This document shows positions 128 through 33,085 of a stretch of 64,000 nt of DNA, in pieces. This DNA is from Eledone cirrhosa (Eukaryota). The first letter of the stretch is position 1; each line of letters starts with the position of its first letter. The position numbers were made by a program, and so were the translations under genes. The stretch covers positions 213,466,001 to 213,530,000 of the forward strand of contig OZ024740.1 in assembly GCA_964016885.1 (NCBI GenBank). Reading direction: 5' to 3'. A model generated the notes under the pieces. It had not been told where the DNA came from, made no database searches, and was given only the letters and a program-made list of their open reading frames with translations.

Positions 128-3100
128 ATTGTGACACCAGCACTACCACCTTACACTGTGGGCTGGATTGTGGCACCAACACTACCACCTTACACTGTGG
201 GCTGGATTGTGCGACCAACACTACCACCTTACACTGTGGGCTGGACTGTGGCACCAACACTACCACCTTACACTGTGAGCTGGATTGGGGCACCAACACT
301 ACCACCTTACACTGTGGGCTGGATTGTGGCACCAGCACTACCACCTTACACTGTGGGCTGGATTGTGGCACCAACACTACCACTTTACACTGTGGGCTGG
401 ACTGTGGCACCAACACTAACACCTTACACTGTGGGCTGGACTGTGGCACCAACACTAACACCTTACACTGTGGGCTGGATTGTGGCACCAACACTACCAC
501 CTTACACTGTGGGCTGGATTGTGGCACCAACACTAACACCTTACACTGTGGGCTGGACTGTGGCACCAACACTACCACCTTACACTGTGGGCTGGATTGT
601 GGCACCAACACTACCACCTTACACTGTGGGCTGGATTGTGGCACCAACACTAACACCTTACACTGTGGGCTGGACTGTGGCACCAACACTACCACCTTAC
701 ACTGTGGGCTGGACTGTGGCACCAACACTACCACCTTACACTGTGGGCTGGATTGTGGCACCAACACTAACACCTTACACTGTGGGCTGGACTGTGGCAC
801 CAACACTAACACCTTACACTGTGGGCTGGACTGTGGCACCAACACTAACACCTTACACTGTGGGCTGGATTGTGGCACCAACACTACCACCTTACACTGT
901 GGGCTGGATTGTGGAACCAACACTACCACCTTACACTGTGGGCTGGATTGTGGAACCAACACTACCACTTTACACTGTGGGCTGGACTGTGGCACCAACA
1001 CTAACACCTTACACTGTGGGCTGGATTGTGGCACCAGCACTAACACCTTACACTGTGGGCTGGATTGTGACACCAACACTACCACCTTACACTGTGGGCT
1101 GGATTGTGGCACCAGCACTACCACCTTACACTGTGGGCTGGATTGTGGCACCAACACTAACACCTTACACTGTGGGCTGGATTGTGGCACCAACACTACC
1201 ACTTTACACTGTGGGCTGGATTGTGGCACCAACACTACCACCTTACACTGTGGGCTGGATTGTGGCACCAACACTAACACCTTACACTGTGGGCTGGATT
1301 GTGGTACCAACACTAACACCTTACACTGTGGGCTGGATTGTGGCTCCAACACTACCACCTTACACTGTGGGCTGGATTGTGACACCGACACTAACACCTT
1401 ACACTGTGGGCTGGATTGTGGCACCAACACTACCACCTTACACTGTGGGCTGGACTGTGGCACCAACACTAACACCTTACACTGTGGGCTGGATTGTGGC
1501 ACCAACACTAACACCTTACACTGGATTGTGGCACCAACACTACCACCTTACACTGTGGGCTGGACTGTGGCACCAACACTAACACCTTACACTGTGGGCT
1601 GGATTGTGGCACCAGCACTACCACCTTACACTGGACTGTGGCACCAACACTAACACCTTAAACTGTGGTCTGGATTGTGGCACCAACACTACCACCTTAC
1701 ACTGGACTGTGGCACCAACACTAACACCTTACACTGTGGGCTGGATTGTGGCACCAACACTAACACCTTACACTGTGGGCTGGATTGTGGCACCAACACT
1801 ACCACTTTACACTGTGGGCTGGATTGTGGCACCAACACTACCACCTTACACTGTGGGCTGGACTGTGGAACCAACACTAACACCTTACACTGTGGGCTGG
1901 ATTGTGGCACCAACACTAACACCTTACACTGTGGGCTGGATTGTGGTACCAACACTAACACCTTACACTGTGGGCTGGATTGTGGCACCAACACTAACAC
2001 CTTACACTGTGGGCTGGAATGTGGCACCAACACTACCACCTTACACTGTGGGCTGGATTGTGGCACCAACACTAACACCTTACACTGTGGGCTGGATTGT
2101 GGCACCAACATTACCACCTTACACTGTGGGCTGGATTGGGGCACCAGCACTACCACCTTACACTGTGGGCTGGATTGTGGCACCAACACTAACACCTTAC
2201 ACTGTGGGCTGGATTGTGGCACCAACACTACCACTTTACACTGTGGGCTGGACTGTGGCACCAACACTAACACCTTACACTGTGGGCTGGATTGTGGCAC
2301 CAACACTAACACCTTACACTGTGGGCTGGATTGTGGCACCAACACTAACACCTTACAATGTGGGCTGGATTGTGGCACCGACACTACCACTTTACACTGT
2401 GGGCTGGATTGTGGCACCAACACTAACACCTTACACTGTGGGCTGGATTGTGGTACCAACACTAACACCTTACACTGTGGGCTGGATTGTGGCACCAACA
2501 CTAACACCTTACACTGTGGGCTGGATTGTGGCACCGACACTACCACTTTACACTGTGGGCTGGATTGTGGCACCAACACTACCACCTTACACTGTGGGCT
2601 GGATTGTGGCACCAACACTAACACCTTACACTGTGGGCTGGATTGTGGTACCAACACTAACACCTTACACTGTGGGCTGGATTGTGGCACCAGCACTACC
2701 ACCTTACACTGTGGGCTGGATTGTGCCACCAACACTACCATCTTACACTGTGGGCTGGACTGTGGCACCAACACTAACACTGTGGGCTGGATTGTGGCAC
2801 CAGCACTACCACCTTACACTGTGGGCTGGATTGTGGCACCAACACTACCACCTTACACTGTGGGCTGGATTGTGGCACCAACACTACCACCTTACACTGT
2901 GGGCTGGACTGTGGGACCAACACTACCACCTTACACTGTGGGCTGGATTGTGACACCAGCACTAACACCTTACACTGTGGGCTGGATTGTGGGACCAACA
3001 CTAACACCTTACACTGTGGGCTGGATTGTGGGACCAACACTACCACCTTACACTGTGGGCTGGACTGTGGCACCAACACTACCACCTTACACTGTGGGCT

Positions 3101-6100
3101 GGATTGTGGCACCAACACTACCATCTTACACTGTGGGCTGGATTGTGGCACCAACACTACCATCTTACACTGTGGGCTGGATTGTGGCACCAACACTAAC
3201 ACCTTACACTGTGGGCTGGATTGTGGGACCAACACTACCACCTTACACTGTGGGCTGCATTGTGGCACCAGCACTACCACCTTACACTGTGGGCTGGATT
3301 GTGGCACCAACACTACCACTTTACGCTGTGGGCTGGATTGTGGCACCAACACTACCACCTTACACTGTGGGCTGGATTGTGGCACCAACACTACCACCTT
3401 ACACTGTGGGCTGGATTGTGGCACCAACACTACCACTTTACACTGTGGGCTGGATTGTGGCACCAACACTACCACCTTACACTGTGGGCTGGATTGCGGC
3501 ACCAACACTACCACCTTACACTGTGGGCTGGATTGTGGCACCAACACTAACACCTTACACTGTGGGCTGGATTGTGGCACCAACACTACCACCTTACACT
3601 GTGGGCTGGATTGTGGCACCAACACTAATACCTTGCACTGTGGGCTGGATCGTGGCACCAACACTACCACTTTACACTGTGGGCTGGACTGTGGCACCAA
3701 CACTACCACCTTACACTGTGGGCTGGATTGTGGCACCAACACTAACACCATACACTGTGGGCTGGATTGTGGCACCAACACTACCACCTTACACTGTGGG
3801 CTGGATTGTGGCACCAACACTAACACCTTACACTGTGGGCTGGATTGTGAAACCAGCACTAACACCTTACACTGTGGGCTGGATTGTGGGACCAACACTA
3901 ACACCTTACACTGTGGGCTGGATTGTGGGACCAACACTACCACCTTACACTGTGGGCTGGACTGTGGCACCAACACTACCACCTTACACTGTGGGCTGGA
4001 TTGTGGCACCAACACTACCATCTTACACTGTGGGCTGGATTGTGGGACCAACACTACCATCTTACACTGTGGGCTGGATTGTGGCACCAACACTAACACC
4101 TTACACTGTGGGCTGGATTGTGGGACCAACACTACCACCTTACACTGTGGGCTGGATTGTGGTACCAACACTAACACCTTACACTGTGGGCTGGATTGTG
4201 GCACCAGCACTACCACCTTACACTGTGGGCTGGATTGTGGCACCAACACTACCACTTTACGCTGTGGGCTGGATTGTGGCACCAACACTACCACCTTACA
4301 CTGTGGGCTGGATTGTGGCACCAACACTACCACCTTACACTGTGGGCTGGATTGTGGCACCAACACTACCACTTTACACTGTGGGCTGGATTGTGGCACC
4401 AACACTAACACCTTACACTGTGGGCTGGATTGCGGCACCAACACTACCACCTTACACTGTGGGCTGGATTGTGGCACCAACACTAACACCTTACACTGTG
4501 GGCTGGATTGTGGCACCAACACTACCACCTTACACTGTGGGCTAGATTGTGGCACCAAAACCAATACCTTACACTGTGGGCTGGATCGTGGCACCAACAC
4601 TACCACTTTACACTGTGGGCTGGACTGTGGCACCAACACTACCACCTTACACTGTGGGCTGGATTGTGGCACCAACACTAACACCTTACACTGTGGGCTG
4701 GATTGTGGCACCAACACTACCACCTTACACTGTGGGCTGGATTGTGGTACCAACACTACCACCTTACACTGTGGGCTGGATTGTGGCACCAACACTACCA
4801 CCTTACACTGTGGGCTGGATTGTGGGACCAACACTACCACCTTACACTGTGGGCTGGACTGTGGTACCGACACTAACACCTTACACTGTGGGCTGGATTG
4901 TGGCACCAACACTACCATCTTACACTGTGGGCTGGACTGTGGCACCAACACTAACACCTTACACTGTGGGCTGGATTGTGGCACCAACACTACCACTTTA
5001 CACTGTGGGCTGTACTGTGGCACCAACACTACCACCTTACACTGTGGGCTGGATTGTGGCACCAACACTACCACCTTACACTGTGGGCTGGATTGTGGCA
5101 CCAACACTAACACCTTACACTGTGGGCTGGATTGTGGCACCAACACTACCACCTTACACTGTGGGCTGGATTGTGGGACCAACACTACCACCTTACACTG
5201 TGGGCTGGACTGTGGCACCGACACTAACACCTTACACTGTGGGCTGGATTGTGGCACCAACACTACCATCTTACACTGTGGGCTGGACTGTGGCACCAAC
5301 ACTAACACCTTACACTGTGGGCTGGATTGTGGCACCAGCACTACCACCTTACACTGTGGGCTGGATTGTGGCACCAACACTACCACCTTACACTGTGGGC
5401 TGGATTGTGACACCAGCACTAACACCTTACACTGTGGGCTGGATTGTGGGACCAACACTACCACCTTACACTGTGGGCTGGATTGTGGGACCAACACTAA
5501 CACCTTACACTGTGGGCTGGATTGTGGGACCAACACTAACACCTTACACTGTGGGCTGGATTGTGGGACCAACACTACCACCTTACACTGTGGGCTGGAC
5601 TGTGGCACCAACACTACCACCTTACACTGTGGGCTGGATTGTGGCACCAACACTACCATCTTACACTGTGGGCTGGATTGTGGCACCAACACTACCATCT
5701 TACACTGTGGGCTGGATTGTGGCACCAACACTAACACCTTACACTGTGGGCTGGATTGTGGGACCAACACTACCACCTTACACTGTGGGCTGGACTGTGG
5801 CACCAACACTACCACCTTACACTGTGGGCTGGATTGTGGCACCAACACTACCATCTTACACTGTGGGCTGGATTGTGGCACCAACACTACCACCTTACAC
5901 TGTGGGCTGGATTGTGGCACCAACACTACCACCTTACACTGTGGGCTGGATTGTGGCACCAACACTACCACCTTACACTGTGGGCTGGATTGTGGGACCA
6001 ACACTACCACCTTACACTGTGGGCTGGACTGTGGCACCGACACTAACACCTTACACTGTGGGCTGGATTGTGGCACCAACACTACCATCTTACACTGTGG

Positions 6101-9100
6101 GCTGGACTGTGGCACCAACACTAACACCTTACACTGTGGGCTGGATTGTGGCACCAACACTACCACTTTACACTGTGGGCTGTACTGTGGCACCAACACT
6201 ACCACCTTACACTGTGGGCTGGATTGTGGCACCAACACTACCACCTTACACTGTGGGCTGGATTGTGGCACCAACACTACCACCTTACACTGTGGGCTGG
6301 ATTGTGGCACCAACACTACCATCTTACACTGTGGGCTGGACTGTGGCACCAACACTAACACCTTACACTGTGGGCTGGATTGTGGCACCAGCACTACCAC
6401 CTTACACTGTGGGCTGGATTGTGGCACCAACACTACCACCTTACACTGTGGGCTGGATTGTGACACCAGCACTAACACCTTACACTGTGGGCTGGATTGT
6501 GGGACCAACACTACCACCTTACACTGTGGGCTGGATTGTGGGACCAACACTAACACCTTACACTGTGGGCTGGATTGTGGGACCAACACTAACACCTTAC
6601 ACTGTGGGCTGGACTGTGGCACCAACACTACCACCTTACACTGTGGGCTGGATTGTGGCACCAACACTACCATCTTACACTGTGGGCTGGATTGTGGCAC
6701 CAACACTACCATCTTACACTGTGGGCTGGATTGTGGCACCAACACTAACACCTTACACTGTGGGCTGGATTGTGGGACCAACACTACCACCTTACACTGT
6801 GGGCTGGACTGTGGCACCAACACTACCACCTTACACTGTGGGCTGGATTGTGGCACCAACACTACCACCTTACACTGTGGGCTGGATTGTGGCACCAACA
6901 CTACCACCTTACACTGTGGGCTGGATTGTGGGACCAACACTACCACCTTACACTGTGGGCTAGATTGTGGCACCAACACTAATACCTTACACTGTGGGCT
7001 GGATCGTGGGACCAACACTACCACCTTACACTGTGGGCTGGACTGTGGCACCAACACTACCACCTTACACTGTGGGCTGGATTGTGGCACCAACACTAAC
7101 ACCTTACACTGTGGGCTGGATTGTGGCACCAACACTACCACCTTACACTGTGGGCTGGATTGTGGCACCAACACTACCACCTTACACTGTGGGCTGGATT
7201 GTGGCACCAACACTACCACCTTACACTGTGGGCTGGATTGTGGGACCAACACTACCACCTTACACTGTGGGCTGGACTGTGGCACCGACACTAACACCTT
7301 ACACTGTGGGCTGGATTGTGGCACCAACACTACCATCTTACACTGTGGGCTGGACTGTGGCACCAACACTAACACCTTACACTGTGGGCTGGATTGTGGC
7401 ACCAACACTACCACTTTACACTGTGGGCTGTACTGTGGCACCAACACTACCACCTTACACTGTGGGCTGGATTGTGGCACCAACACTACCACCTTACACT
7501 GTGGGCTGGATTGTGGCACCAACACTACCACCTTACACTGTGGGCTGGATTGTGGCACCAACACTACCACCTTACACTGTGGGCTGGATTGTGGGACCAA
7601 CACTACCACCTTACACTGTGGGCTGGACTGTGGCACCGACACTAACACCTTACACTGTGGGCTGGATTGTGGCACCAACACTACCATCTTACACTGTGGG
7701 CTGGACTGTGGCACCAACACTAACACCTTACACTGTGGGCTGGATTGTGGCACCAGCACTACCACCTTACACTGTGGGCTGGATTGTGGCACCAACACTA
7801 CCACCTTACACTGTGGGCTGGATTGTGACACCAGCACTAACACCTTACACTGTGGGCTGGATTGTGGGACCAACACTACCACCTTACACTGTGGGCTGGA
7901 TTGTGGGACCAACACTAACACCTTACACTGTGGGCTGGATTGTGGGACCAACACTAACACCTTACACTGTGGGCTGGATTGTGGGACCAACACTAACACC
8001 TTACACTGTGGGCTGGACTGTGGCACCAACACTACCACCTTACACTGTGGGCTGGATTGTGGCACCAACACTACCATCTTACACTGTGGGCTGGATTGTG
8101 GCACCAACACTACCATCTTACACTGTGGGCTGGATTGTGGCACCAACACTAACACCTTACACTGTGGGCTGGATTGTGGGACCAACACTACCACCTTACA
8201 CTGTGGGCTGGACTGTGGCACCAACACTACCACCTTACACTGTGGGCTGGATTGTGGCACCAACACTACCATCTTACACTGTGGGCTGGATTGTGGCACC
8301 AACACTACCACCTTACACTGTGGGCTGGATTGTGGCACCAACACTACCACCTTACACTGTGGGCTGGATTGTGGCACCAACACTACCACCTTACACTGTG
8401 GGCTGGATTGTGGCACCAACACTACCATCTTACACTGTGGGCTGGATTGTGGCACCAACACTACCACCTTACACTGTGGGCTGGATTGTGGCACCAACAC
8501 TACCACCTTACACTGTGGGCTGGACTGTGGAACCAACACTACCACCTTACACTGTGGGCTAGATTGTGGCACCAACACTACCACTTTACACTGTGGGCTG
8601 GACTGTGGCACCAACACTACCACCTTACACTGTGGGCTGGACTGTGGCACCAACACTAACACCTTACACTGTGGGCTGGACTGTGGCACCAACACTAACA
8701 CCTTACACTGTGGGCTGGATTGTGACACCAGCACTAACACCTTACACTGTGGGCTGGATTGTGGGACCAACACTAACACCTTACACTGTGGGCTGGATTG
8801 TGGGACCAACACTAACACCTTACACTGTGGGCTGGATTGTGGGACCAACACTAACACCTTACACTGTGGGCTGGATTGTGACACCAGCACTAACACCTTA
8901 CACTGTGGGCTGGATTGTGGGACCAACACTAACACCTGACACTGTGGGCTGGATTGTGGGACCAACACTAACACCTTACACTGTGGGCTGGATTGTGGCA
9001 CCAACACTACCACTTTACACTGTGGGCTGGATTGTGGCACCAACACTACCACCTTACACTGTGGGCTGGACTGTGGCACCAACACTACCACCTTACACTG

Positions 9101-12100
9101 TGGGCTGGATTGTGGCACCAACACTACCACCTTACACTGTGGGCTGGATTGTGGCACCAACACTACCACCTTACACTGTGGGCTGGACTGTGGCACCAAC
9201 ACTACCACCTTACACTGTGGGCTGGATTGTGGCACCAACACTACCATCTTACACTGTGGGCTGGATTGTGGCACCAACACTACCATCTTACACTGTGGGC
9301 TGGATTGTGGCACCAACACTAACACCTTACACTGTGGGCTGGATTGTGGGACCAACACTACCACCTTACACTGTGGGCTGGACTGTGGCACCAACACTAC
9401 CACCTTACACTGTGGGCTGGATTGTGGCACCAACACTACCATCTTACACTGTGGGCTGGATTGTGGCACCAACACTACCACCTTACACTGTGGGCTGGAT
9501 TGTGGCACCAACACTACCACCTTACACTGTGGGCTGGATTGTGGCACCAACACTACCACCTTACACTGTGGGCTGGATTGTGGGACCAACACTACCACCT
9601 TACACTGTGGGCTGGACTGTGGCACCGACACTAACACCTTACACTGTGGGCTGGATTGTGGCACCAACACTACCATCTTACACTGTGGGCTGGACTGTGG
9701 CACCAACACTAACACCTTACACTGTGGGCTGGATTGTGGCACCAACACTACCACTTTACACTGTGGGCTGTACTGTGGCACCAACACTACCACCTTACAC
9801 TGTGGGCTGGATTGTGGCACCAACACTACCACCTTACACTGTGGGCTGGATTGTGGCACCAACACTACCACCTTACACTGTGGGCTGGATTGTGGCACCA
9901 ACACTACCATCTTACACTGTGGGCTGGACTGTGGCACCAACACTAACACCTTACACTGTGGGCTGGATTGTGGCACCAGCACTACCACCTTACACTGTGG
10001 GCTGGATTGTGGCACCAACACTACCACCTTACACTGTGGGCTGGATTGTGACACCAGCACTAACACCTTACACTGTGGGCTGGATTGTGGGACCAACACT
10101 ACCACCTTACACTGTGGGCTGGATTGTGGGACCAACACTAACACCTTACACTGTGGGCTGGATTGTGGGACCAACACTAACACCTTACACTGTGGGCTGG
10201 ACTGTGGCACCAACACTACCACCTTACACTGTGGGCTGGATTGTGGCACCAACACTACCATCTTACACTGTGGGCTGGATTGTGGCACCAACACTACCAT
10301 CTTACACTGTGGGCTGGATTGTGGCACCAACACTAACACCTTACACTGTGGGCTGGATTGTGGGACCAACACTACCACCTTACACTGTGGGCTGGACTGT
10401 GGCACCAACACTACCACCTTACACTGTGGGCTGGATTGTGGCACCAACACTACCACCTTACACTGTGGGCTGGATTGTGGCACCAACACTACCACCTTAC
10501 ACTGTGGGCTGGATTGTGGGACCAACACTACCACCTTACACTGTGGGCTAGATTGTGGCACCAACACTAATACCTTACACTGTGGGCTGGATCGTGGGAC
10601 CAACACTACCACCTTACACTGTGGGCTGGACTGTGGCACCAACACTACCACCTTACACTGTGGGCTGGATTGTGGCACCAACACTAACACCTTACACTGT
10701 GGGCTGGATTGTGGCACCAACACTACCACCTTACACTGTGGGCTGGATTGTGGCACCAACACTACCACCTTACACTGTGGGCTGGATTGTGGCACCAACA
10801 CTACCACCTTACACTGTGGGCTGGATTGTGGGACCAACACTACCACCTTACACTGTGGGCTGGACTGTGGCACCGACACTAACACCTTACACTGTGGGCT
10901 GGATTGTGGCACCAACACTACCATCTTACACTGTGGGCTGGACTGTGGCACCAACACTAACACCTTACACTGTGGGCTGGACTGTGGCACCAACACTAAC
11001 ACCTTACACTGTGGGCTGGATTGTGGCACCAGCACTACCACCTTACACTGTGGGCTGGATTGTGGCACCAACACTACCACCTTACACTGTGGGCTGGATT
11101 GTGACACCAGCACTAACACCTTACACTGTGGGCTGGATTGTGGGACCAACACTACCACCTTACACTGTGGGCTGGATTGTGGGACCAACACTAACACCTT
11201 ACACTGTGGGCTGGATTGTGGGACCAACACTAACACCTTACACTGTGGGCTGGATTGTGGGACCAACACTAACACCTTACACTGTGGGCTGGACTGTGGC
11301 ACCAACACTACCACCTTACACTGTGGGCTGGATTGTGGCACCAACACTACCATCTTACACTGTGGGCTGGATTGTGGCACCAACACTACCATCTTACACT
11401 GTGGGCTGGATTGTGGCACCAACACTAACACCTTACACTGTGGGCTGGATTGTGGGACCAACACTACCACCTTACACTGTGGGCTGGACTGTGGCACCAA
11501 CACTACCACCTTACACTGTGGGCTGGATTGTGGCACCAACACTACCATCTTACACTGTGGGCTGGATTGTGGCACCAACACTACCACCTTACACTGTGGG
11601 CTGGATTGTGGCACCAACACTACCACCTTACACTGTGGGCTGGATTGTGGCACCAACACTACCACCTTACACTGTGGGCTGGATTGTGGCACCAACACTA
11701 CCATCTTACACTGTGGGCTGGATTGTGGCACCAACACTACCACCTTACACTGTGGGCTGGATTGTGGCACCAACACTACCACCTTACACTGTGGGCTGGA
11801 CTGTGGAACCAACACTACCACCTTACACTGTGGGCTAGATTGTGGCACCAACACTACCACTTTACACTGTGGGCTGGACTGTGGCACCAACACTACCACC
11901 TTACACTGTGGGCTGGACTGTGGCACCAACACTAACACCTTACACTGTGGGCTGGACTGTGGCACCAACACTAACACCTTACACTGTGGGCTGGATTGTG
12001 ACACCAGCACTAACACCTTACACTGTGGGCTGGATTGTGGGACCAACACTAACACCTTACACTGTGGGCTGGATTGTGGGACCAACACTAACACCTTACA

Positions 12101-12885
12101 CTGTGGGCTGGATTGTGGGACCAACACTAACACCTTACACTGTGGGCTGGATTGTGACACCAGCACTAACACCTTACACTGTGGGCTGGATTGTGGGACC
12201 AACACTAACACCTGACACTGTGGGCTGGATTGTGGGACCAACACTAACACCTTACACTGTGGGCTGGATTGTGGCACCAACACTACCACTTTACACTGTG
12301 GGCTGGATTGTGGCACCAACACTACCACCTTACACTGTGGGCTGGACTGTGGCACCAACACTACCACCTTACACTGTGGGCTGGATTGTGGCACCAACAC
12401 TACCACCTTACACTGTGGGCTGGATTGTGGCACCAACACTACCACCTTACACTGTGGGCTGGATTGTGGCACCAACACTACCAACTTACACTGTGGGCTG
12501 GATTGTGGCACCAACACTACCACTTTACACTGTGGGCTGGATTGTGGCACAAACACTACCACCTTACACTGTGGGCTGGATTGTGGCACCAACACTACCA
12601 CCTTACACTGTGGGCTGGATTGTGACACCAACACTACCACCTTACACTGTGGGCTGGATTGTGGCACCAACACTAACACCTTACACTGTGGGCTGGATTG
12701 TGGCACCAACACTACCACCTTACACTGTGGGCTGGATTGTGGCACCAACACTACCACCTTACACTGTGGGCTGGATTGTGGCACCAACACTAACACCTTA
12801 CACTGTGGGCTGGATTGTGGCACCAACACTAACACCTTACACTGGATTGTGGCACCAACACTACCACTTTACAGAGTAGGCTGAG
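128..12885. repeat. Minisatellite array, 39-bp unit CCTTACACTGTGGGCTGGATTGTGGCACCAACACTA(C/A)CA, ~327 copies
   Basis: Directly visible tandem repeat with 13-aa periodicity in all ORFs. A few units have 8-bp deletions (~1520, ~1630, ~1700, ~2780, ~12840). Confidence 0.99.
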
Positions 12886-13012
12886 TATATATATAAATCA
12901 TTAAAATGAAAGTTAACAACATTCAACTTGGAATATTAACATAAAGGTGCAAATAAAGAAAAATTAATAATGTATATACATATCATCATTTAACGTCCAT
13001 TTTCTATGCAAG

Positions 13013-13294: not shown

Positions 13295-13357
13295 ATATTT
13301 TATAACATCTGTGTGCATGAGTACATCATACTTTATATTAACTTTATCGAGAGATAT

Positions 13358-13401
<44 letters not shown>

Positions 13402-13513
13402 GTTCCTGTATGAGCAAGACCTGGTCACCCGACCTGGCATTGCCCACAATAGGACAGCCCGTCTAACTCATACTAGCGTGGAAGAGTGGATGTAAAATGG
13501 TAATGATGATGAT
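13402..13513 (+). mobile_element. 3' half of RTE-tailed SINE with (GAT)n tail
   Basis: CCCGTCTAACTCATACTAGCGTGGAAGAGTGGATGTAAAATG..GATGATGAT matches the tails at 51151-51212, 47788-47850 and 61408-61470. Confidence 0.75.
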
Positions 13514-14158: not shown

Positions 14159-14206
<48 letters not shown>

Positions 14207-16150: not shown

Positions 16151-16226
16151 AGTATTTTATGTGGCACCTTGGGCCTTTCTACTATAAATTGGTAGAGAGA
16201 AATGGTGAAGAAATCTGTTGCAGATA

Positions 16227-16470
16227 TCATCATCATCACTCTCTAACATCTATTTTTCATGTTTACATAGGTTAGACATGTCAGATGGACATGCCTTGCT
16301 CATACTCTCTGTTTGGAGCTTGGTTTCTATGACTAAATGCCCTTCTAAATGCCAACCACTTTACAGCACGTACTGGGAACATTTTTCGAGGCACCAACTC
16401 CATCACTTTATATGGTAGATTCAGTGATTTTTGTTGTGGAACCAGTACTGTCACCTTATATGGTGGACTG
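16227..16470 (-). mobile_element. RTE-tailed SINE copy (family A) that seeds the 45-bp array
   Basis: (CAT)n tail, then AATGCCCTTCTAAATGCCAACCACTTTACAGCACGTACTGGG.., homologous to 38122-38380, 44790-44990 and 61408-61680. It grades directly into the 45-bp units. Confidence 0.85.
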
Positions 16471-19400: not shown

Positions 19401-22400
19401 CTGTTGTAGAACCAGAACTACCACTTTATATGGTGAACTGGGTAACTGTTCTAGAACCAGAACTACCACTTTATATGGTGAACTGGGTGACTGTTCTAGA
19501 ACCAGAACTACCACTTTATATGGTGAACTGGGTGACTGTTCTAGAACCAGAACTACCACTTTATATGGTGAACTGGGTGACTGTTCTAGAACCAGAACTA
19601 CCACTTTATATGGTAGACTGGGTGACTGTTCTAGAACCAGAACTACCACTTTATATGGTGAACTGGGTGACTGTTCTAGAACCAGAACTACCACTTTATA
19701 TGGTGAACTGGGTGACTGTTCTAGAACCAGAACTACCACTTTATATGGTGAACTGGGTGACTGTTCTAGAACCAGAACTACCACTTTATATGGTGAACTG
19801 GGTGACTGTTCTAGAACCAGAACTACCACTTTATATGGTAGACTGGGTGACTGTTCTAGAACCAGAACTACCACTTTATATGGTGAACTGGGTGACTGTT
19901 CTAGAACCAGAACTACCACTTTATATGGTGAACTGGGTGACTGTTCTAGAACCAGAACTACCACTTTATATGGTGAACTGGGTGACTGTTCTAGAACCAG
20001 AACTACCACTTTATATGGTGAACTGGGTGACTGTTCTAGAACCAGAACTACCACTTTATATGGTGAACTGGGTGACTGTTCTAGAACCAGAACTACCACT
20101 TTATATGGTGAACTGGGTGACTGTTCTAGAACCAGAACTACCACTTTATATGGTGAACTGGGTGACTGTTCTAGAACCAGAACTACCACTTTATATGGTA
20201 GACTGGGTGACTGTTCTAGAACCAGAACTACCACTTTATATGGTGAACTGGATGACTGTTCTAGAACCAGAACTACCACTTTATATGGTGAACTGGGTGA
20301 CTGTTCTAGAACCAGAACTACCATTTATATGGTGAATTAGGTGACTGTTCTAGAACCAGAACTACCACTTTATATGGTAGACTGGGTGACTGTTCTAGAA
20401 ACAGAACTACCACTTTATATGGTGAACTGGGTGACTGTTCTAGAACCAGAACTACCACTTTATATGGTGAACTGGGTGACTGTTCTAGAACCAGAACTAC
20501 CACTTTATATGGTGGACTGGGTGACTGTTCTAGAACCAGAACTACCACTTTATATGGTGGACTGGGTGACTGTTCTAGAACCAGAACTACCACTTTATAT
20601 GGTGAACAGGGTGACTGTTCTAGAACCAGAACTACCACTTTATATGGTGAACTGGGTGACTGTTCTAGAACCAGAACTACCACTTTATATGGTGAACGGG
20701 GTGACTGTTCTAAAACCAGAACTACCACTTTATATGGTGAACTGGGTGACTGTTCTAGAACCAGAACTACCACTTTATATGATGAACTGGGTGACTGCTC
20801 TAGAACCAGAACTACCACTTTATATGGTGAACTGGGTGACTGTTCTAGAACCAGAACTACCACTTTATATGGTGAACTGGGTGACTGTTCTAGAACCAGA
20901 ACTACCACTTTATATGGTGAACTGGGTGACTGTTCTAGAACCAGAACTACCACTTTATATGGTAGACTGGGTGACTGTTGTAGAACCAGAACTACCACTT
21001 TATATGGTGAACTGGGTGACTGTTCTAGAACCAGAACTACCACTTTATATGGTGAACTGGGTGACTGTTCTAGAACCAGAACTACCACTTTATATGGTAG
21101 ACTGGGTGACTGTTCTAGAACCAGAACTACCACTTTATATGGTGAACTGGGTGACTGTTCTAGAACCAGAACTACCACTTTATATGGTGAACTGGGTGAC
21201 TGTTCTAGAACCAGAACTACCACTTTATATGGTGAACTGGGTGACTGTTCTAGAACCAGAACTACCACTTTATATGGTGAACTGGGTGACTGTTCTAGAA
21301 CCAGAACTACCACTTTATATGGTGAACTGGGTGACTGTTCTAGAACCAGAACTACGACTTTATATGGTGAACTGGGTGACTGTTCTAGAACCAGAACTAC
21401 CACTTTATATGGTAGACTGGGTGACTGTTCTAGAACCAGAACTACCACTTTATATGGTGAACTGGGTGACTGTTCTAGAACCAGAACTACCACTTTATAT
21501 GGTGAACTGGGTGACTGTTCTAGAACCAGAACTACCACTTTATATGGTGAACTGGGTGACTGTTCTAGAACCAGAACTACCACTTTATATGGTAGACTGG
21601 GTGACTGTTCTAGAACCAGAACTACCACTTTATATGGTAGACTGGGTGACTGTTCTAGAACCAGAACTACCACTTTATATGGTGAACTGGGAGACTGTTC
21701 TAGAACCAGAATTACCACTTTCTATGGTAGACTGGGTGACTGTTCTAGAACCAGAACTACCACTTTATATGGTGAACTGGCTGACTGTTCTAGAACCAGA
21801 ACTACCACTTTATATGGTAGACTGGGTGACTGTTCTAGAACCAGAACTACCACTTTATATGGTGGACTGGGTGACTGTTCTAGAACCAGAACTACCACTT
21901 TATATGGTGAACGGGGTGACTGTTCTAGAACCAGAACTACCACTTTATATGGTGAACTGGGTGACTGTTCTAGAACCAGAACTACCACTTTATATGGTGA
22001 ACTGGGTGACTGTTGTAGAACCAGAACTACCACTTTATATGGTGAACTGGGTGACTGTTCTAGAACCAGAACTACCACCTTATATGGTGAACTGGGTGAC
22101 TGTTCTAGAACCAGAACTACCACTTTATATGGTGAACTGGGTGACTGTTCTAGAACCAGAACTACCACTTTATATGGTGAACTGGGTGACTGTTCTAGAA
22201 CCAGAACTACCACTTTATATGGTAGACTGGGTGACTGTTCTAGAACCAGAACTACCACTTTATATGGTGAACTGGGTGACTGTTCTAGAACCAGAACTAC
22301 CACTTTATATGGTGAACTGGGTGACTGTTCTAGAACCAGAACTACCATTTTATATGGTGAATTGGGTGACTGTTCTAGAACCAGAACTACCACTTTATAT

Positions 22401-25400
22401 GGTAGACTGGGTGACTGTTCTAGAACCAGAACTACCACTTTATATGGTGAACTGGGTGACTGTTCTAGAACCAGAACTACCACTTTATATGGTGAACTGG
22501 GTGACTGTTCTAGAACCAGAACTACCACTTTATATGGTGAACTGGGTCACTGTTCTAGAACCAGAACTACCACTTTATATGGTGAACTGGGTGACTGTTC
22601 TAAAACCAGAACTACCACTTTATATGGTGAACTGGGTGACTGTTCTAGAACCAGAACTACCACTTTATATGGTGAACTGGGTGACTGTTCTAGAACCAGA
22701 ACTACCACTTTATATGATGAACTGGGTGACTGTTCTAGAACCAGAACTACCACTTTATATGGTGAACTGGGTGACTGTTCTAGAACCAGAACTACCACTT
22801 TATATGGTGAACTGGGTGACTGTTCTAGAACCAGAACTACCACTTTATATGGTGAACTGGGTGACTGTTCTAGAACCAGAACTACCACTTTATATGGTGA
22901 ACTGGGTGACTGTTCTAGAACCAGAACTACCACTTTATATGATGAACTGGGTGACTGCTCTAGAACCAGAACTACCACTTTATATGGTGAACTGGGTGAC
23001 TGTTCTAGAACCAGAACTACCACTTTATATGGTGAACTGGGTGACTGTTCTAGAACCAGAACTACCACTTTATATGGTGAACTGGGTGACTGTTCTAGAA
23101 CCAGAACTACCACTTTATATGGTAGACTGGGTGACTGTTCTAGAACCAGAACTACCACTTTATATGGTGAACTGGGTGACTGTTCTAGAACCAGAACTAC
23201 CACTTTATATGGTGAACTGAGGTGACTGTTCTAGAACCAGAACTACCACTTTATATGGTGAACTGGGTGACTGTTCTAGAACCAGAACTACCACTTTATA
23301 TGGTAGACTGGGTGACTGTTCTAGAACCAGAACTACCACTTTATATGGTGAACTGGGTGACTGTTCTAGAACCAGAACTACCACTTTATATGGTGAACTG
23401 GGTGACTGTTCTAGAACCAGAACTACCACTTTATATGGTAGACTGGGTGACTGTTCTAGAACCAGAACTACCACTTTATATGGTGAACTGGGTGACTGTT
23501 CTAGAACCAGAACTACCACTTTATATGGTGAACTGGGTGACTGTTCTAGAACCAGAACTACCACTTTATATGGTGAACTGGGTGACTGTTCTAGAACCAG
23601 AACTACCACTTTATATGGTGAACTGGGTGACTGTTCTAGAACCAGAACTACCACTTTATATGGTGAACTGGGTGACTGTTCTAGAACCAGAACTACGACT
23701 TTATATGGTGAACTGGGTGACTGTTCTAGAACCAGAACTACCACTTTATATTGTAGACTGGGTGACTGTTCTAGAACCAGAACTACCACTTTATATGGTG
23801 AACTGGGTGACTGTTCTAGAACCAGAACTACCACTTTATATGGTGAACTGGGTGACTGTTCTAGAACCAGAACTACCACTTTATATGGTGAACTGGGTGA
23901 CTGTTCTAGAACCAGAACTACCACTTTATATGGTAGACTGGATGACTGTTCTAGAACCAGAACTACCACTTTATATGGTAGACTGGGTGACTGTTCTAGA
24001 ACCAGAACTACCACTTTATATGGTGAACTGGGAGACTGTTCTAGAACCAGAATTACCACTTTCTATGGTAGACTGGGTGACTGTTCTAGAACCAGAACTA
24101 CCACTTTATATGGTGAACTGGCTGACTGTTCTAGAACCAGAACTACCACTTTATATGGTAGACTGGGTGACTGTTCTAGAACCAGAACTACCACTTTATA
24201 TGGTGGACTGGGTGACTGTTCTAGAACCAGAACTACCACTTTATATGGTGAACGGGGTGACTGTTCTAGAACCAGAACTACCACTTTATATGGTGAACTG
24301 GGTGACTGTTCTAGAACCAGAACTACCACTTTATATGGTGAACTGGGTGACTGTTGTAGAACCAGAACTACCACTTTATATGGTGAACTGGGTGACTGTT
24401 CTAGAACCAGAACTACCACTTTATATGGTGAACTGGGTGACTGTTCTAGAACCAGAACTACCACTTTATATGGTGAACTGGGTGACTGTTCTAGAACCAG
24501 AACTACCACTTTATATGGTGAACTGGGTGACTGTTCTAGAACCAGAACTACCACTTTATATGGTAGACTGGGTGACTGTTCTAGAACCAGAACTACCACT
24601 TTATATGGTGAACTGGGTGACTGTTCTAGAACCAGAACTACCACTTTATATGGTGAACTGGGTGACTGTTCTAGAACCAGAACTACCACTTTATATGGTG
24701 AATTGGGTGACTGTTCTAGAACCAGAACTACCACTTTATATGGTAGACTGGGTGACTGTTCTAGAACCAGAACTACCACTTTATATGGTGAACTGGGTGA
24801 CTGTTCTAGAACCAGAACTACCACTTTATATGGTGAACTGGGTGACTGTTCTAGAACCAGAACTACCACTTTATATGGTGAACTGGGTGACTGTTCTAGA
24901 ACCAGAACTACCACTTTATATGGTGAACTGGGTGACTGTTCTAAAACCAGAACTACCACTTTATATGGTGAACTGGGTGACTGTTCTAGAACCAGAACTA
25001 CCACTTTATATGGTGAACTGGGTGACTGTTCTAGAACCAGAACTACCACTTTATATGATGAACTGGGTGACTGTTCTAGAACCAGAACTACCACTTTATA
25101 TGGTGAACTGGGTGACTGTTCTAGAACCAGAACTACCACTTTATATGGTGAACTGGGTGACTGTTCTAGAACCAGAACTACCACTTTATATGGTGAACTG
25201 GGTGACTGTTCTAGAACCAGAACTACCACTTTATATGGTGAACTGGGTGACTGTTCTAGAACCAGAACTACCACTTTATATGGTAGACTGGGTGACTGTT
25301 CTAGAACCAGAACTACCACTTTATATGGTGAACTGGGTGACTGTTCTAGAACCAGAACTACCACTTTATATGGTGAACTGAGGTGACTGTTCTAGAACCA

Positions 25401-28400
25401 GAACTACCACTTTATATGGTGAACTGGGTGACTGTTCTAGAACCAGAACTACCACTTTATATAGTAGACTGGGTGACTGTTCTAGAACCAGAACTACCAC
25501 TTTATATGGTGAACTGGGTGACTGTTCTAGAACCAGAACTACCACTTTATATGGTGAACTGGGTGACTGTTCTAGAACCAGAACTACCACTTTATATGGT
25601 GAACTGAGTGACTGTTCTAGAACCAGAACTACCACTTTATATGGTGAACTGGGTGACTGTTCTAGAACCAGAACTACCACTTTATATGGTTAACTGGGTG
25701 ACTGTTCTAGATCCAGAACTACCACTTTATATGGTGAACTGGGTGACTGTTCTAGAACCAGAACTACCACTTTATATGGTGAACTGGCTGACTGTTCTAG
25801 AACCAGAACTACCACTTTATATGGTAGACTGGGTGACTGTTCTAGAACCAGAACTACCACTTTATATGGTGAACTGGGTGACTGTTCTAGAACCAGAACT
25901 ACCACTTTATATGGTGGACTGGGTGACTGTTCTAGAACCAGAACTACCACTTTATATGGTGAACTGGGTGACTGTTCTAGAACCAGAACTACCACTTTAT
26001 ATGGTGAACTGGGTGACTGTTCTAGAACCAGAACTACCACTTTATATGGTAGACTGGGTGACTGTTCTAGAACCAGAACTACCACTTTATATGGTGAACT
26101 GGGTGACTGTTCTAGAACCAGAACTACCACTTTATATGGTGAACTGGGTGACTGTTCTAGAACCAGAACTACCACTTTATATGGTGAACTGGGTGACTGT
26201 TCTAGAACCGGAACTACCACTTTATATGGTGAACTGGGTGACTGTTCTAGAACCAGAACTACCACTTTATATGGTGAACTGGGTGACTGTTCTAGAACCA
26301 GAACTACCACTTTATATGGTAGACTGGGTGACTGTTCTAGAACCAGAACCAGAACTAACACTTTATATGGTGAACTGGGTGACTGTTCTAGAACCAGAAC
26401 TACCACTTTATATGGTGAACTGGGTGACTGTTCTAGAACCAGAACTACCACTTTATATGGTGAACTGGGTGACTGTTCTAGAACCAGAACTACCACTTTA
26501 TATGGTGAACTGGGTGACTGTTCTAGAACCAGAACTACCACTTTACATGGTAGACTGGGTGACTGTTCTAGAACCAGAACTACCACTTTATATGGTGGAC
26601 TGGGTGACTGTTCTAGAACCAGAACTACCACTTTATATGGTGAACAGGGTGACTGTTCTAGAACCAGAACTACCACTTTATATGGTGAACTGGGTGACTG
26701 TTCTAGAACCAGAACTACCACTTTATATGGTGAACTGGGTGACTGTTCTAGAACCAGAACTACCACTTTATATGGTGAACTGGGTGACTGTTCTAGAACC
26801 AGAACTAGCACTTTATATGGTGAACTGGGTGACTGTTGTAGAACCAGAACTACCACTTTATATGGTAAACTGGGTGACTGTTCTAGAACCAGAACTACCA
26901 CTTTATATGGTGAACTGGGTGACTGTTCTAGAACCAGAACTACCACTTTATATGGTGAACTGGGTGACTGTTCTAGAACCAGAACTACCACTTTATATGG
27001 TGAACTGGGTGACTGTTCTAGAACCAGAACTACCACTTTATATGGTGAACTGGGTGACTGTTCTAGAACCAGAACTACCACTTTATATGGTAGACTGGGT
27101 GACTGTTCTAGAACCAGAACTACCACTTTATATGGTGAACTGGGTGACTGTTCTAGAACCAGAACTACCACTTTATATGGTGAACTGGGTGACTGTTCTA
27201 GAACCAGAACTACCACTTTATATGGTGAACTGGGTGACTGTTCTAGAACCAGAACTACCACTTTATATGGTAGACTGGGTGACTGTTCTAGAACCAGAAC
27301 TACCACTTTATATGGTGAACTGGGTGACTGTTCTAGAACCAGAACTACCACTTTATATGGTGAACTGGGTGACTGTTCTAGAACCAGAACTACCACTTTA
27401 TATGGTGAACTGGGTGACTGTTCTAGAACCAGAAACTACCACTTTATATGGTGAATTGGGTGACTGTTCTAGAACCAGAACTACCACTTTATATGGTGAA
27501 CTGGGTGACTGTTCTAGAACCAGAACTACCACTTTATATGGTGAACTGGGTGACTGTTCTAGAACCAGAACTACCACTTTATATGGTAGACTGGGTGACT
27601 GTTCTAGAACCAGAACTACCACTTTATATGGTGAACTGGGTGACTGTTCTAGAATCAGAACTACCACTTTATATGGTGAACTGGGTGACTGTTCTAGAAC
27701 CAGAACTACCACTTTATATGGTGAACTGGGTGACTGTTCTAGAACCAGAACTACCACTTTATATGGTGAACTGGGTGACTGTTCTAGAACCAGAACTACC
27801 ACTTTATATGGTGAATTGGGTGACTGTTCTAGAACCAGAACTACCACTTTATATGGTGAACTGGGTGACTGTTCTAGAACCAGAACTACCACTTTATATG
27901 GTGAACTGGGTGACTGTTCTAGAACCAGAACTACCACTCTATATGGTGAACTGGGTGACTGTTCTAGAACCAGAACTACCACTTTATATGGTGAACTGGG
28001 TGACTGTTCTAGAACCAGAACTACCACTTTATATGGTAGACTGGGTGACTGTTCTAGAACCAGAACTACCATTTTATATGGTGAACTGGATGACTGTTCT
28101 AGAACCAGAACTACCACTTTATATGGTGAACTGGGTGACTGTTCTAGAACCAGAACTACCACTTTATATGGTGAATTAGGTGACTGTTCTAGAACCAGAA
28201 CTACCACTTTATATAGTAGACTGGGTGACTGTTCTAGAACCAGAACTACCACTTTATATGGTGAACTGGGTGACTGTTCTAGAACCAGAACTACCACTTT
28301 ATATGGTGAACTGGGTGACTGTTCTAGAACCAGAACTACCACTTTATATGGTGAACTGAGTGACTGTTCTAGAACCAGAACTACCACTTTATATGGTGAA

Positions 28401-31400
28401 CTGGGTGACTGTTCTAGAACCAGAACTACCACTTTATATGGTTAACTGGGTGACTGTTCTAGATCCAGAACTACCACTTTATATGGTGAACTGGGTGACT
28501 GTTCTAGAACCAGAACTACCACTTTATATGGTGAACTGGCTGACTGTTCTAGAACCAGAACTACCACTTTATATGGTAGACTGGGTGACTGTTCTAGAAC
28601 CAGAACTACCACTTTATATGGTGAACTGGGTGACTGTTCTAGAACCAGAACTACCACTTTATATGGTGGACTGGGTGACTGTTCTAGAACCAGAACTACC
28701 ACTTTATATGGTGAACTGGGTGACTGTTCTAGAACCAGAACTACCACTTTATATGGTGAACTGGGTGACTGTTCTAGAACCAGAACTACCACTTTATATG
28801 GTAGACTGGGTGACTGTTCTAGAACCAGAACTACCACTTTATATGGTGAACTGGGTGACTGTTCTAGAACCAGAACTACCACTTTATATGGTGAACTGGG
28901 TGACTGTTCTAGAACCAGAACTACCACTTTATATGGTGAACTGGGTGACTGTTCTAGAACCGGAACTACCACTTTATATGGTGAACTGGGTGACTGTTCT
29001 AGAACCAGAACTACCACTTTATATGGTGAACTGGGTGACTGTTCTAGAACCAGAACTACCACTTTATATGGTAGACTGGGTGACTGTTCTAGAACCAGAA
29101 CCAGAACTAACACTTTATATGGTGAACTGGGTGACTGTTCTAGAACCAGAACTACCACTTTATATGGTGAACTGGGTGACTGTTCTAGAACCAGAACTAC
29201 CACTTTATATGGTGAACTGGGTGACTGTTCTAGAACCAGAACTACCACTTTATATGGTGAACTGGGTGACTGTTCTAGAACCAGAACTACCACTTTATAT
29301 GGTAGACTGGGTGACTGTTCTAGAACCAGAACTACCACTTTATATGGTGGACTGGGTGACTGTTCTAGAACCAGAACTACCACTTTATATGGTGAACAGG
29401 GTGACTGTTCTAGAACCAGAACTACCACTTTATATGGTGAACTGGGTGACTGTTCTAGAACCAGAACTACCACTTTATATGGTGAACTGGGTGACTGTTC
29501 TAGAACCAGAACTACCACTTTATATGGTGAACTGGGTGACTGTTCTAGAACCAGAACTAGCACTTTATATGGTGAACTGGGTGACTGTTGTAGAACCAGA
29601 ACTACCACTTTATATGGTAAACTGGGTGACTGTTCTAGAACCAGAACTACCACTTTATATGGTGAACTGGGTGACTGTTCTAGAACCAGAACTACCACTT
29701 TATATGGTGAACTGGGTGACTGTTCTAGAACCAGAACTACCACTTTATATGGTGAACTGGGTGACTGTTCTAGAACCAGAACTACCACTTTATATGGTGA
29801 ACTGGGTGACTGTTCTAGAACCAGAACTACCACTTTATATGGTAGACTGGGTGACTGTTCTAGAACCAGAACTACCACTTTATATGGTGAACTGGGTGAC
29901 TGTTCTAGAACCAGAACTACCACTTTATATGGTGAACTGGGTGACTGTTCTAGAACCAGAACTACCACTTTATATGGTGAACTGGGTGACTGTTCTAGAA
30001 CCAGAACTACCACTTTATATGGTAGACTGGGTGACTGTTCTAGAACCAGAACTACCACTTTATATGGTGAACTGGGTGACTGTTCTAGAACCAGAACTAC
30101 CACTTTATATGGTGAACTGGGTGACTGTTCTAGAACCAGAACTACCACTTTATATGGTGAACTGGGTGACTGTTCTAGAACCAGAAACTACCACTTTATA
30201 TGGTGAATTGGGTGACTGTTCTAGAACCAGAACTACCACTTTATATGGTGAACTGGGTGACTGTTCTAGAACCAGAACTACCACTTTATATGGTGAACTG
30301 GGTGACTGTTCTAGAACCAGAACTACCACTTTATATGGTAGACTGGGTGACTGTTCTAGAACCAGAACTACCACTTTATATGGTGAACTGGGTGACTGTT
30401 CTAGAATCAGAACTACCACTTTATATGGTGAACTGGGTGACTGTTCTAGAACCAGAACTACCACTTTATATGGTGAACTGGGTGACTGTTCTAGAACCAG
30501 AACTACCACTTTATATGGTGAACTGGGTGACTGTTCTAGAACCAGAACTACCACTTTATATGGTGAATTGGGTGACTGTTCTAGAACCAGAACTACCACT
30601 TTATATGGTGAACTGGGTGACTGTTCTAGAACCAGAACTACCACTTTATATGGTGAACTGGGTGACTGTTCTAGAACCAGAACTACCACTCTATATGGTG
30701 AACTGGGTGACTGTTCTAGAACCAGAACTACCACTTTATATGGTGAACTGGGTGACTGTTCTAGAACCAGAACTACCACTTTATATGGTAGACTGGGTGA
30801 CTGTTCTAGAACCAGAACTACCATTTTATATGGTGAACTGGATGACTGTTCTAGAACCAGAACTACCACTTTATATGGTGAACTGGGTGACTGTTCTAGA
30901 ACCAGAACTACCACTTTATATGGTGAATTAGGTGACTGTTCTAGAACCAGAACTACCACTTTATATGGTAGACTGGGTGACTGTTCTAGAACCAGAACTA
31001 CCACTTTATATGGTGAACTGGGTGACTGTTCTAGAACCAGAACTACCACTTTATATGTTAAACTGGGTGACTGTTCTAGAACCAGAACTACCACTTTATA
31101 TGGTGGACTGGGTGACTGTTCTAGAACCAGAACTACCACTTTATATGGTGGACTGGGTGACTGTTCTAGAACCAGAACTACCACTTTATATGGTGAACAG
31201 GGTGACTGTTCTAGAACCAGAACTACCACTTTATATGGTGAACTGGGTGACTGTTCTAGAACCAGAACTACCACTTTATATGGTGAACTGGGTGACTGTT
31301 CTAGAACCAGAACTACTACTTTATATGGTGAACTGGGTGACTGTTCTAGAACCAGAACTACCACTTTATATGGTAGACTGGGTGACTGTTCTAGAACCAG

Positions 31401-33085
31401 AACTACCACTTTATATGGTGAACTGGGTGACTGTTCTAGAACCAGAACTACCACTTTATATGGTGAACTGAGGTGACTGTTCTAGAACCAGAACTACCAC
31501 TTTATATGGTGAACTGGGTGACTGTTCTAGAACCAGAACTACCACTTTATATGGTAGACTGGGTGACTGTTCTAGAACCAGAACTACCACTTTATATGGT
31601 GAACTGGGTGACTGTTCTAGAACCAGAACTACCACTTTATATGGTGAACTGGGTGACTGTTCTAGAACCAGAACTACCACTTTATATGGTAGACTGGGTG
31701 ACTGTTCTAGAACCAGAACTACCACTTTATATGGTGAACTGGGTGACTGTTCTAGAACCAGAACTACCACTTTATATGGTGAACTGGGTGACTGTTCTAG
31801 AACCAGAACTACCACTTTATATGGTGAACTGGGTGACTGTTCTAGAACCAGAACTACCACTTTATATGGTGAACTGGGTGACTGTTCTAGAACCAGAACT
31901 ACCACTTTACATGGTGAACTGGGTGACTGTTCTAGAACCAGAACTACGACTTTATATGGTGAACTGGGTGACTGTTCTAGAACCAGAACTACCACTTTAT
32001 ATGGTAGACTGGGTGACTGTTCTAGAACCAGAACTACCACTTTATATGGTGAACTGGGTGACTGTTCTAGAACCAGAACTACCACTTTATATGGTGAACT
32101 AGGTGACTGTTCTAGAACCAGAACTACCACTTTATATGGTAGACTGGGTGACTGTTCTAGAACCAGAACTACCACTTTATATGGTGAACTGGGTGACTGT
32201 TCTAGAACCAGAACTACCACTTTATATGGTGAACTGGGTGACTGTTCTAGAACCAGAACTACCACTTTATATGGTGAACTGGGTGACTGTTCTAGAACCA
32301 GAACTACCACTTCATATGGTAGACTGGGTGACTGTTCTAGAACCAGAACTACCACTTTATATGGTGAACTGGGTGACTGTTCTAGAACCAGAACTACCAC
32401 TTTATATGGTAGACTGGGTGACTGTTCTAGAACCAGAACTACCACTTTATATGGTGAACTGGGTGACTGTTCTAGAACCAGAACTACCACTTTATATGGT
32501 AAACTGGGTGACTGTTCTAGAACCAGAACTACCACTTTATATGGTGAACTGGGTGACTGTTCTAGAACCAGAACTACCACTTTATATGGTGAACTGGGTG
32601 ACTGTTCTAGAACCAGAACTACCACTTTATATGGTGAACTGGGTGACTGTTCTAGAACCAGAACTACCACTTTATATGGTGAACTGGGTGGCTGTTCTAG
32701 AACCAGAACTACCACTTTATATGGTGAACTGGGTGACTGTTCTAGAACCAGAACTACCACTTTATATGGTAGACTGGGTGACTGTTCTAGAACCAGAACT
32801 ACCACTTTATATGGTGAACTGGGTGACTGTTCTAGAACCAGAACTACCACTTTATATGGTGAACTGGGTGACTGTTTTAGAACCAGAACTACCACTTTAT
32901 ATGGTGAACTGGGTGACTGTTCTAGAACCAGAACTACCACTTTATATGGTGAACTGGGTGACTGTTCTAGAACCAGAACTACCACTTTATATGGTGAACT
33001 GGCTGACTGTTCTAGAACCAGAACTACCACTTTATATGGTGAACTGGGTGACTTTTGTTGTAGAACCAGCACTACCACTTTATAG
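16404..33085. repeat. Minisatellite array, 45-bp unit CTTTATATGGTGAACTGGGTGACTGTTCTAGAACCAGAACTACCA, ~370 copies
   Basis: Directly visible tandem repeat with 15-aa periodicity in the ORFs. Nearly every unit has the palindrome GTTCTAGAAC (XbaI site). Confidence 0.99.

Follow-up and report, generated by a model that had tools for sequence, protein, structure and literature searches.

A 64,000-nucleotide stretch of the Eledone cirrhosa genome, which begins at position 213,466,001 of contig OZ024740.1 (C1) in the 3.0-Gb assembly GCA_964016885.1 and is called the window here, contains two giant minisatellites with units of 39 and 45 bp. Both arrays derive from the same ~48-bp module, which is carried by RTE-like long interspersed nuclear elements (LINEs) and by short interspersed nuclear elements (SINEs). 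Each array probably began as a LINE-derived module copy that was enlarged in place long after its insertion, by duplication of blocks of units, in a region that favors the expansion of any tandem seed. The window arrays are most likely non-functional.

Two minisatellites related to one module

The arrays and the sequences at their edges are listed below by window position (RT, reverse transcriptase; TRF, Tandem Repeats Finder; UTR, untranslated region).

1..127, plus strand: end of an RT-like fragment of non-LTR type (LTR, long terminal repeat) that continues upstream of the window and is cut off where the 39-mer array ends
128..12873, minus strand: 39-bp minisatellite, 328 units (TRF: period 39, 327.7 copies, 94% matches)
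12874..12886, minus strand: incomplete unit of ancestral type that forms the 5′ edge of the 39-mer array, with no head upstream
16226..16431, minus strand: old host element of the 45-mer array, with two degenerate edge units, a body (conserved RTE 5′-UTR-type hairpin), an RTE-type tail and (GAT)n
16432..33084, minus strand: 45-bp minisatellite, 370 units (TRF: period 45, 369.6 copies, 96% matches)
33090..33218, minus strand: remnant of another old copy, its 3′ end with part of the body and the tail, immediately upstream of the 45-mer array

The arrays measure ~13 kb (39-mer) and ~17 kb (45-mer), lie 3,558 bp apart and both carry the motif on the minus strand. This agrees with the original prediction, made from the letters of the window, which had placed them ~3.5 kb apart in the same orientation and had quoted correctly the sequences of both units and of the LINE motif at 54630-54677. 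We aligned each unit, in its best rotation and strand, to this 48-bp LINE motif and to dinucleotide shuffles (300 per unit). The 39-mer scored 46 (shuffle mean 21.8, maximum 35; z = 6.3), as did the 45-mer (mean 21.4, maximum 36; z = 7.2), and 0/300 shuffles reached the score in either case, which bears out the predicted descent of both arrays from one motif. The 39-mer unit corresponds to the 48-bp module less a 9-bp A-rich linker, and the 45-mer unit to the module with 3 bp lost and substitutions; the first unit of the 45-mer array is still 48 bp long and keeps the A tract. The last 45-mer units degrade into element body, RTE-type tail and (GAT)n at 16226-16431, and this is the only one of the two window arrays that continues in this way. 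At the 3′ end of the 39-mer array there is no element body, and the array stops mid-unit at position 128 against a convergent fragment whose motifs we take to be those of an RT; Pfam returned no match for four short frames beside the arrays, this fragment included. The commonest 45-mer unit is present in 199 exact copies among 366 units, and the 45-bp XbaI ladder that had been proposed as a check is visible in the sequence, with 335 of 356 predicted sites spaced by 45 bp. A short inverted-repeat element adjoining the 39-mer array (13040-13290) contains a 78-bp direct repeat (98%).

With the two array ends as queries, 39 of 1,710 and 39 of 201 candidates were scored and yielded 125 and 111 matches, around which 39 stretches were fetched. 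These stretches, the window and two sampled loci form the set in which we traced chains of at least four units; three chains with fewer than three measurable units were left out, and one locus (L017) had no chain of four. The 46 measurable chains represent 42 arrays on 17 contigs, that is, ~40 arrays beyond the window pair. Their period is 48 bp in 39 chains, 47 bp in three, 45 bp in two, and 49 bp and 39 bp in one each. Other giant module arrays include one of ~23 kb on contig C888 and probably those on C7 and C5, where matches extend over ~38 kb and ~40 kb, respectively. An exact tandem-junction pattern occurs 1,586 times genome-wide (control, 0) and an exact body motif 96,651 times. The predicted series from one unit to hundreds is borne out across the genome. 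The pattern list also contains a further module array with a 51-bp period (C2:13501400-13505048), and the module array at L033:2211-5995 is split by a LINE fragment, with the longer and more uniform part on one side.

Unit homogeneity rises with array length (0.956 for chains of at least ten units versus 0.907 for shorter ones; Spearman 0.40, p = 0.006). Long loci are not homogenized between loci: array consensuses have a mean pairwise identity of 79%, and 5 of 1,035 pairs reach at least 95%, pieces of the same array included. The two window arrays are 72% identical to each other, and their nearest units, at 92% and 87%, lie on other contigs. Because the window arrays rank each other near the bottom of the 46 chains (44th and 42nd of 45) while closer units lie on other contigs, these comparisons support the predicted independent birth of the two arrays. 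Their shared strand is a coin toss.

Carriers of the module

Module-bearing elements elsewhere in the window are the following.

38122..38377, minus strand: copy without a head, made up of two modules (38283-38377), a body and a tail
38492..38582, plus strand: two modules without a body
44790..44988, minus strand: copy without a head, made up of one incomplete module, a body and a tail
50868..51235, plus strand: young SINE that has a tRNA/CORE head, a single module (51046-51089), a body and a tail that matches the one of the LINE at 51500
51500..54760, minus strand: decayed RTE-like LINE with a single open reading frame (ORF; APE, RT and PHD domains) and one module in its 5′ UTR at 54630-54677
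61408..62620, minus strand: 5′-truncated RTE-like LINE with two modules (61586-61675), body and tail in its 3′ UTR

The LINE at 51500..54760 has a single ORF of ~1000 amino acids with APE and RT domains, a length of ~3.2 kb and a microsatellite tail, hallmarks that fit membership of the RTE clade. Its relatives are proteins of 930–1100 amino acids on 3.1–3.9-kb contigs, and they also occur in fish, plants, a nematode and insects; none of the homologs carries the name RTE. The stretch at 61408-61680 had been read as a SINE and is instead the 3′ UTR of a LINE, whose ORF ends ~50 bp before the first module (tblastn, amino acids 806–1103 of 1104). The copy at 50868, by contrast, is a SINE as stated, with a tRNA/CORE-type head and one module, although on the plus rather than the minus strand. 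An Rfam scan of window positions 33000-64000 gave a weak tRNA match at 50878-50935 and otherwise microsatellite-driven microRNA matches. Dispersed copies had been said to carry one to three modules; those in the window contain one or two full modules and none contains three.

A search with one LINE end and its modules as the query returned 25 loci, with one unit at one locus, two at 12, three at four, four at four, five at one, six at two and eight at one. The C-terminal part of the ORF lies at most 500 bp upstream of the modules at 13 of these loci, and the expanded internal units of the LINE-end loci have locus-specific variants in common. Because the number of units varies from one to eight across the 25 loci and the ORF end lies upstream in 13, the module is a variable number tandem repeat (VNTR) inside LINE 3′ UTRs. 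Young tRNA/CORE-headed SINEs carry one module in all eight sampled module-bearing copies and two in one further copy (L026). In the 3′ UTR of a young LINE subfamily (L020:329-560, L193, L194, L224), module and body together recur in tandem as a 112-bp unit, so that expansion has a second period here. A different LINE family gives rise, from its 3′ part, to arrays of 61 bp and 27 bp at loci apart from one another (L019:62-1773, L012:7628-7875, L169 and window 56480-56560).

The 38 array 5′ flanks include no SINE (tRNA/CORE) head and one LINE ORF end, and the arrays start at many phases of the unit. Among the 41 chains with their 3′ end in view, 29 continue into a body or tail that scores above the control maximum. 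With flanks headless, start phases varied and most chains running into body or tail, the simplest reading is that the long arrays sit on 5′-truncated, headless LINE 3′ ends. The original prediction had made a SINE the carrier and had anticipated other SINE-seeded arrays; the further arrays are there, and their seed is not mainly a SINE.

Probable growth in place and regional expansion

Among 29 copies that bear arrays, bodies and tails match their own majority at 74%, versus 96–99% for the young headed SINEs. In the 22 arrays of at least ten units, tails match their majority at 73% and units are 96% alike, the units having the higher value in 22/22. The 39-mer and 45-mer arrays contain 53 and 49 distinct unit types, respectively, ordered hierarchically in partly diverged blocks. 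In the variant map of the 39-mer array, blocks of 46 and 37 units recur, with offsets of 92 and 84 (shuffles, <8), and that of the 45-mer array contains repeated blocks of 36, 32 and 24 units (shuffle maximum, 13) together with nested tandem duplications of 61, 42 and 52 units. Because the tails are old while the units are alike, and the variant maps contain nested block duplications, the arrays likely grew long after insertion, in kilobase jumps. Unequal exchange and replication-based duplication are established processes in minisatellite biology, and the growth pattern fits either as its possible pathway.

The original prediction had called the module inherently expandable. In a systematic sample of the assembly (59 stretches of 10 kb, 590 kb), we found 59 module chains (47 single, nine double and one each of three, four and 6–7 units; control, 1), none with ten or more units. 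The same sample holds 13 complex minisatellites that cover 46 of the 590 kb (7.8%), and none of the 13 derives from the module. Four of the 59 stretches lie wholly inside single arrays, with units of 27, 49, 84 and 64 bp (L169, L179, L217 and L227), and six of the 13 arrays match another place within 0.93 Mb of compared sequence; several match dispersed repeats. Across 46 module units, DNA folding is ordinary (mean z of −0.12 and −0.06), with no hairpin excess. Sequence beside module arrays contains 12 unrelated arrays in 124 kb, compared with 9 in 550 kb for the systematic sample (p = 8 × 10⁻⁵); the surroundings of the window contain 7 in 109 kb and those of short-chain LINE ends 0 in 79 kb. 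Two fetched loci carry a second module array of at least ten units. This clustering suggests regional expansion zones. Tandem seeds that already exist and lie in permissive regions suffice to account for the data, with no need of intrinsic expandability. The earlier claim is not supported, although a moderate intrinsic enrichment is possible.

The course of events that we favor would run as follows. The module, present once in a LINE 5′ UTR, stands one to eight times in tandem within the 3′ UTR that older LINE subfamilies have, where the conserved hairpin body and the RTE-type tail come next. Retrotransposition with 5′ truncation would have spread headless copies, each with n modules, body and tail, by the tens of thousands, and since this scatters tandem modules, each headless copy would be a ready-made tandem seed. 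In a few copies, one internal unit seems to have gained locus-specific changes (a 9-bp deletion in the 39-mer; a 3-bp deletion and substitutions in the 45-mer), and the changed unit would then have been amplified by unequal exchange or replication-based duplication in blocks of tens of units, with ancestral units left at the edges. The site of expansion would be set largely by the region rather than by the module. The body and tail of the 39-mer array may have been lost in a deletion that also cut the neighboring RT fragment.

Several observations weigh against this account. No recognizable body or tail follows 12 of the 41 chains, the 39-mer included. The subtype that makes up both window arrays yielded neither a LINE nor a headed master (37 of 38 flanks are headless); the VNTR linked to LINEs at 25 loci is a sister subtype, so that the carrier of the window arrays is a putative one. 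The tail of the 45-mer array aligns to the tail of the window LINE with a score of 37 (shuffle maximum, 36), and its link to the family rests on the family alignment, in which it is 80% identical to the majority. The clustering test is confounded by chromosome class (four arrays in 35 stretches on C1–C4, nine in 24 on the rest), and its array loci were chosen by similarity search.

The most serious alternative is that the module's own sequence is unusually prone to expansion and seeds arrays far above its genome share wherever it inserts, which we consider doubtful. At least 42 arrays keep a ~48-bp period (39 of 46 chains at exactly 48 bp), copy number ranges from one to eight within otherwise intact 3′ UTRs, and exact tandem junctions are as frequent as given above. 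The systematic sample speaks the other way, with 0/13 arrays from the module despite its 59 module chains, as do the ordinary folding of the units and the fact that other repeats form arrays too; since modules make up ~0.6% of the sample, 0/13 would nevertheless be compatible with their being enriched 10- to 30-fold. Transfer as DNA from another array of the genome, by gene conversion or by way of a DNA circle, is an improbable source of tail-less arrays such as the 39-mer. It would account for the mid-unit end of the 39-mer array against an unrelated, cut-off fragment and for the chains without body and tail, but no second 39-bp array was found among 39 of 201 candidates scored, whose best matches (73% over 290 bp) are 48-bp arrays, and an ancestral-type partial unit persists at the 5′ edge of the 39-mer array.

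An origin of the arrays at insertion, by RT template jumping or by rolling-circle copying of self-cleaved module RNA, is very unlikely and is already largely refuted. The constant position of the arrays at the 5′ end of the element would suit it, and in one of 20 metagenome loci scanned, a twister-P1 match (L122:268-345, minus strand; E = 1.8 × 10⁻⁷, below the gathering score) lies directly 5′ of the same downstream hairpin and overlaps it. Such an origin is contradicted by units that are far more alike than the old tails in all 22 arrays, by locus-specific variants in nested blocks, by 5′ ends at many phases rather than at one cut site and by the lack of a ribozyme among 36 Rfam matches in window 33000-64000, outside the arrays. 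That the window arrays are halves of one ancestral array, split or locally duplicated, is hardly credible: their short distance, their common strand and the interruption of the L033 array by an insertion would allow it, but their low mutual ranks and 72% identity, with closer units (87–92%) on other contigs, do not, and the 45-mer's own body and tail lie between the arrays, whose edge units lack each other's diagnostic changes. It is scarcely conceivable that assembly artefacts account for the arrays. Blocks duplicated almost identically might be the product of false duplication, and no read spans an array in the data examined; against this, the 53 and 49 unit types form hierarchical, partly diverged blocks, and in sequencing run X4 a 75-letter 45-mer contig has a depth of 1,028 versus 5 for a flank contig of 256 letters that matches with 0 differences, which comes close to the 199 exact copies of the commonest 45-mer unit. 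This check concerns the 45-mer only, the depth of a contig does not equal copy number, and the source sample may be that of X4; runs X5 and X6, from the same sample as X4, gave no 45-mer contig at 96% likeness. For the 39-mer, reads on 12790-16540 at 85% likeness were swamped by dispersed repeats and are uninformative, and runs X1–X3 contain only small shares.

Known systems and possible RNA structure

The window arrays are a new example of an already published transposon-to-satellite route; the VNTR of SVA elements is another transposon-born case. The original prediction knew of no description of the recurring SINE-module-to-satellite system; the route is described in squamates (PMC10702118) and Lathyrus (PMC7004042). 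The squamate SINE-derived satellites sSat1–3 (Vassetzky et al. 2023, PMC10702118) are likewise arrays of part of a retroposon, with few to hundreds of units and many independent origins; one terminal unit continues to the end of the element (here in the 45-mer but not the 39-mer, and in 29/41 chains), and homogeneity increases with length. Their units are longer (70–290 nt versus 39–49 bp here), their long loci are alike both within and between loci, whereas here each locus has its own consensus (mean 79%), and they are mostly subtelomeric, whereas the window lies mid-contig, at 213 of 443 Mb of C1; the seed here, unlike theirs, is already tandem in the LINE 3′ UTR. Short arrays inside LTR retrotransposons (Ogre 3′ UTR, PisTR-A and Lathyrus satellites; Vondrak et al., PMC7004042; review, PMC9659126) also expand occasionally from a dispersed retroelement in favorable regions. 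The carrier here is by contrast non-LTR and RTE-like.

The composition of the carrier resembles the bipartite RTE-derived elements and SINEs Bov-A, Bov-tA and Ceph-SINEs (Kojima 2018, PMC5786205), which join part of an RTE 5′ UTR to the 3′ end of an RTE and may or may not bear a tRNA/CORE head. Here the fused unit is also the 3′ UTR of full LINEs. AviRTE has two copies of a conserved 5′-UTR domain, and the words 'tandem' and 'octopus' have no occurrence in the available text of that article (PMC5786205). Hypervariable minisatellites born from transposons include mouse Ms6-hm and Hm-2 (MaLR), a B1-derived family and Alu-derived human ones (PMC9659126); as here, one and the same part of a dispersed repeat has expanded at different loci independently, but the arrays here reach tens of kilobases. 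Further literature includes a review (PMC12692304) and a paper on octopus LINEs (PMC9115989). We found no paper on the module family or on cephalopod minisatellites of this kind, although subscription journals, Repbase, Dfam or supplements may hold one.

The module family offers a clean series from one unit through eight to hundreds, from one ancestor and at dozens of independent loci, in which the birth of a minisatellite can be dated against the tail of its own host element and effects of sequence and position can be separated. The background load of minisatellites (13 arrays and 7.8% of the sample, with clustering) would bear on the size of genomes, their assembly and their structural variation in the animal group concerned. 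Leads worth following are this background of giant locus-specific minisatellites and a possible structured RNA.

A 25-nt hairpin with an AGGAAG loop lies 3′ of the module (window example, 61555-61585, minus strand) and recurs in at least 120 metagenome stretches, of which we analyzed 80 (72 distinct) and scanned 20 with Rfam. Three bases outside the search pattern can pair to close the stem in 66 of the 72 distinct copies (expected, 1 in 8). The hairpin matched no Rfam family in these 20 loci, and the motif had 0 matches in viral contigs. The same module stands upstream of the hairpin in seven metagenome loci of two types. Stem 1 changes on both sides among the LINE, the headed SINE and the seven metagenome copies, which hints that the ancestral 5′-UTR module may form an H-type pseudoknot; stem 2 is nearly invariant. 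A general pseudoknot descriptor was not enriched (6/72 versus 4 and 8 in controls), and all five stem-1 pairs are kept in 0/46 array units; RNA structure is not needed for expansion. We rejected a hepatitis delta virus (HDV)-like fold for module and hairpin: by eye, the joining strand misfits, and the 5′ ends are not at one site. An HDV-like descriptor, run on the metagenome loci only, gave 1/72 matches, not at the module's place. A hairpin-like motif upstream of the conserved hairpin in six loci (L072, L098, L081, L049, L102 and L107) resembles one of HDV-like retroelement ribozymes; neither Rfam nor the descriptor matched it.

A bolder history, which we regard as a long shot, would see in the module a structured RNA that is ancient, undescribed and at home in RTE 5′ UTRs, where it forms an H-type pseudoknot in the slot that a twister has in another RTE, just before a hairpin conserved across animals. 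This lineage would have moved it to LINE 3′ UTRs and SINEs and multiplied it into a mobile VNTR, and would so have spread a dedicated minisatellite-seeding cassette that regional hot zones enlarge to tens of kilobases in a genome that is ~8% locus-specific giant minisatellite.

The LINE module copy contains, at 54660-54672 (minus strand), GCTGGTGG, which we take to be the Escherichia coli Chi octamer that has been likened to minisatellite cores; we give it no weight, and the array units differ from GCTGGTGG by at least one base. Window positions 33220-35700, 13640-14110 and 63340-63580 hold a repeat with plus-strand RT-like frames and related ends elsewhere in the window, which we assume to be Penelope-like; Pfam gave no match in two of its frames. 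A degenerate telomere-like array (12/24-bp period, TTAGGG-related) lies inside the contig at window 43654-43831.

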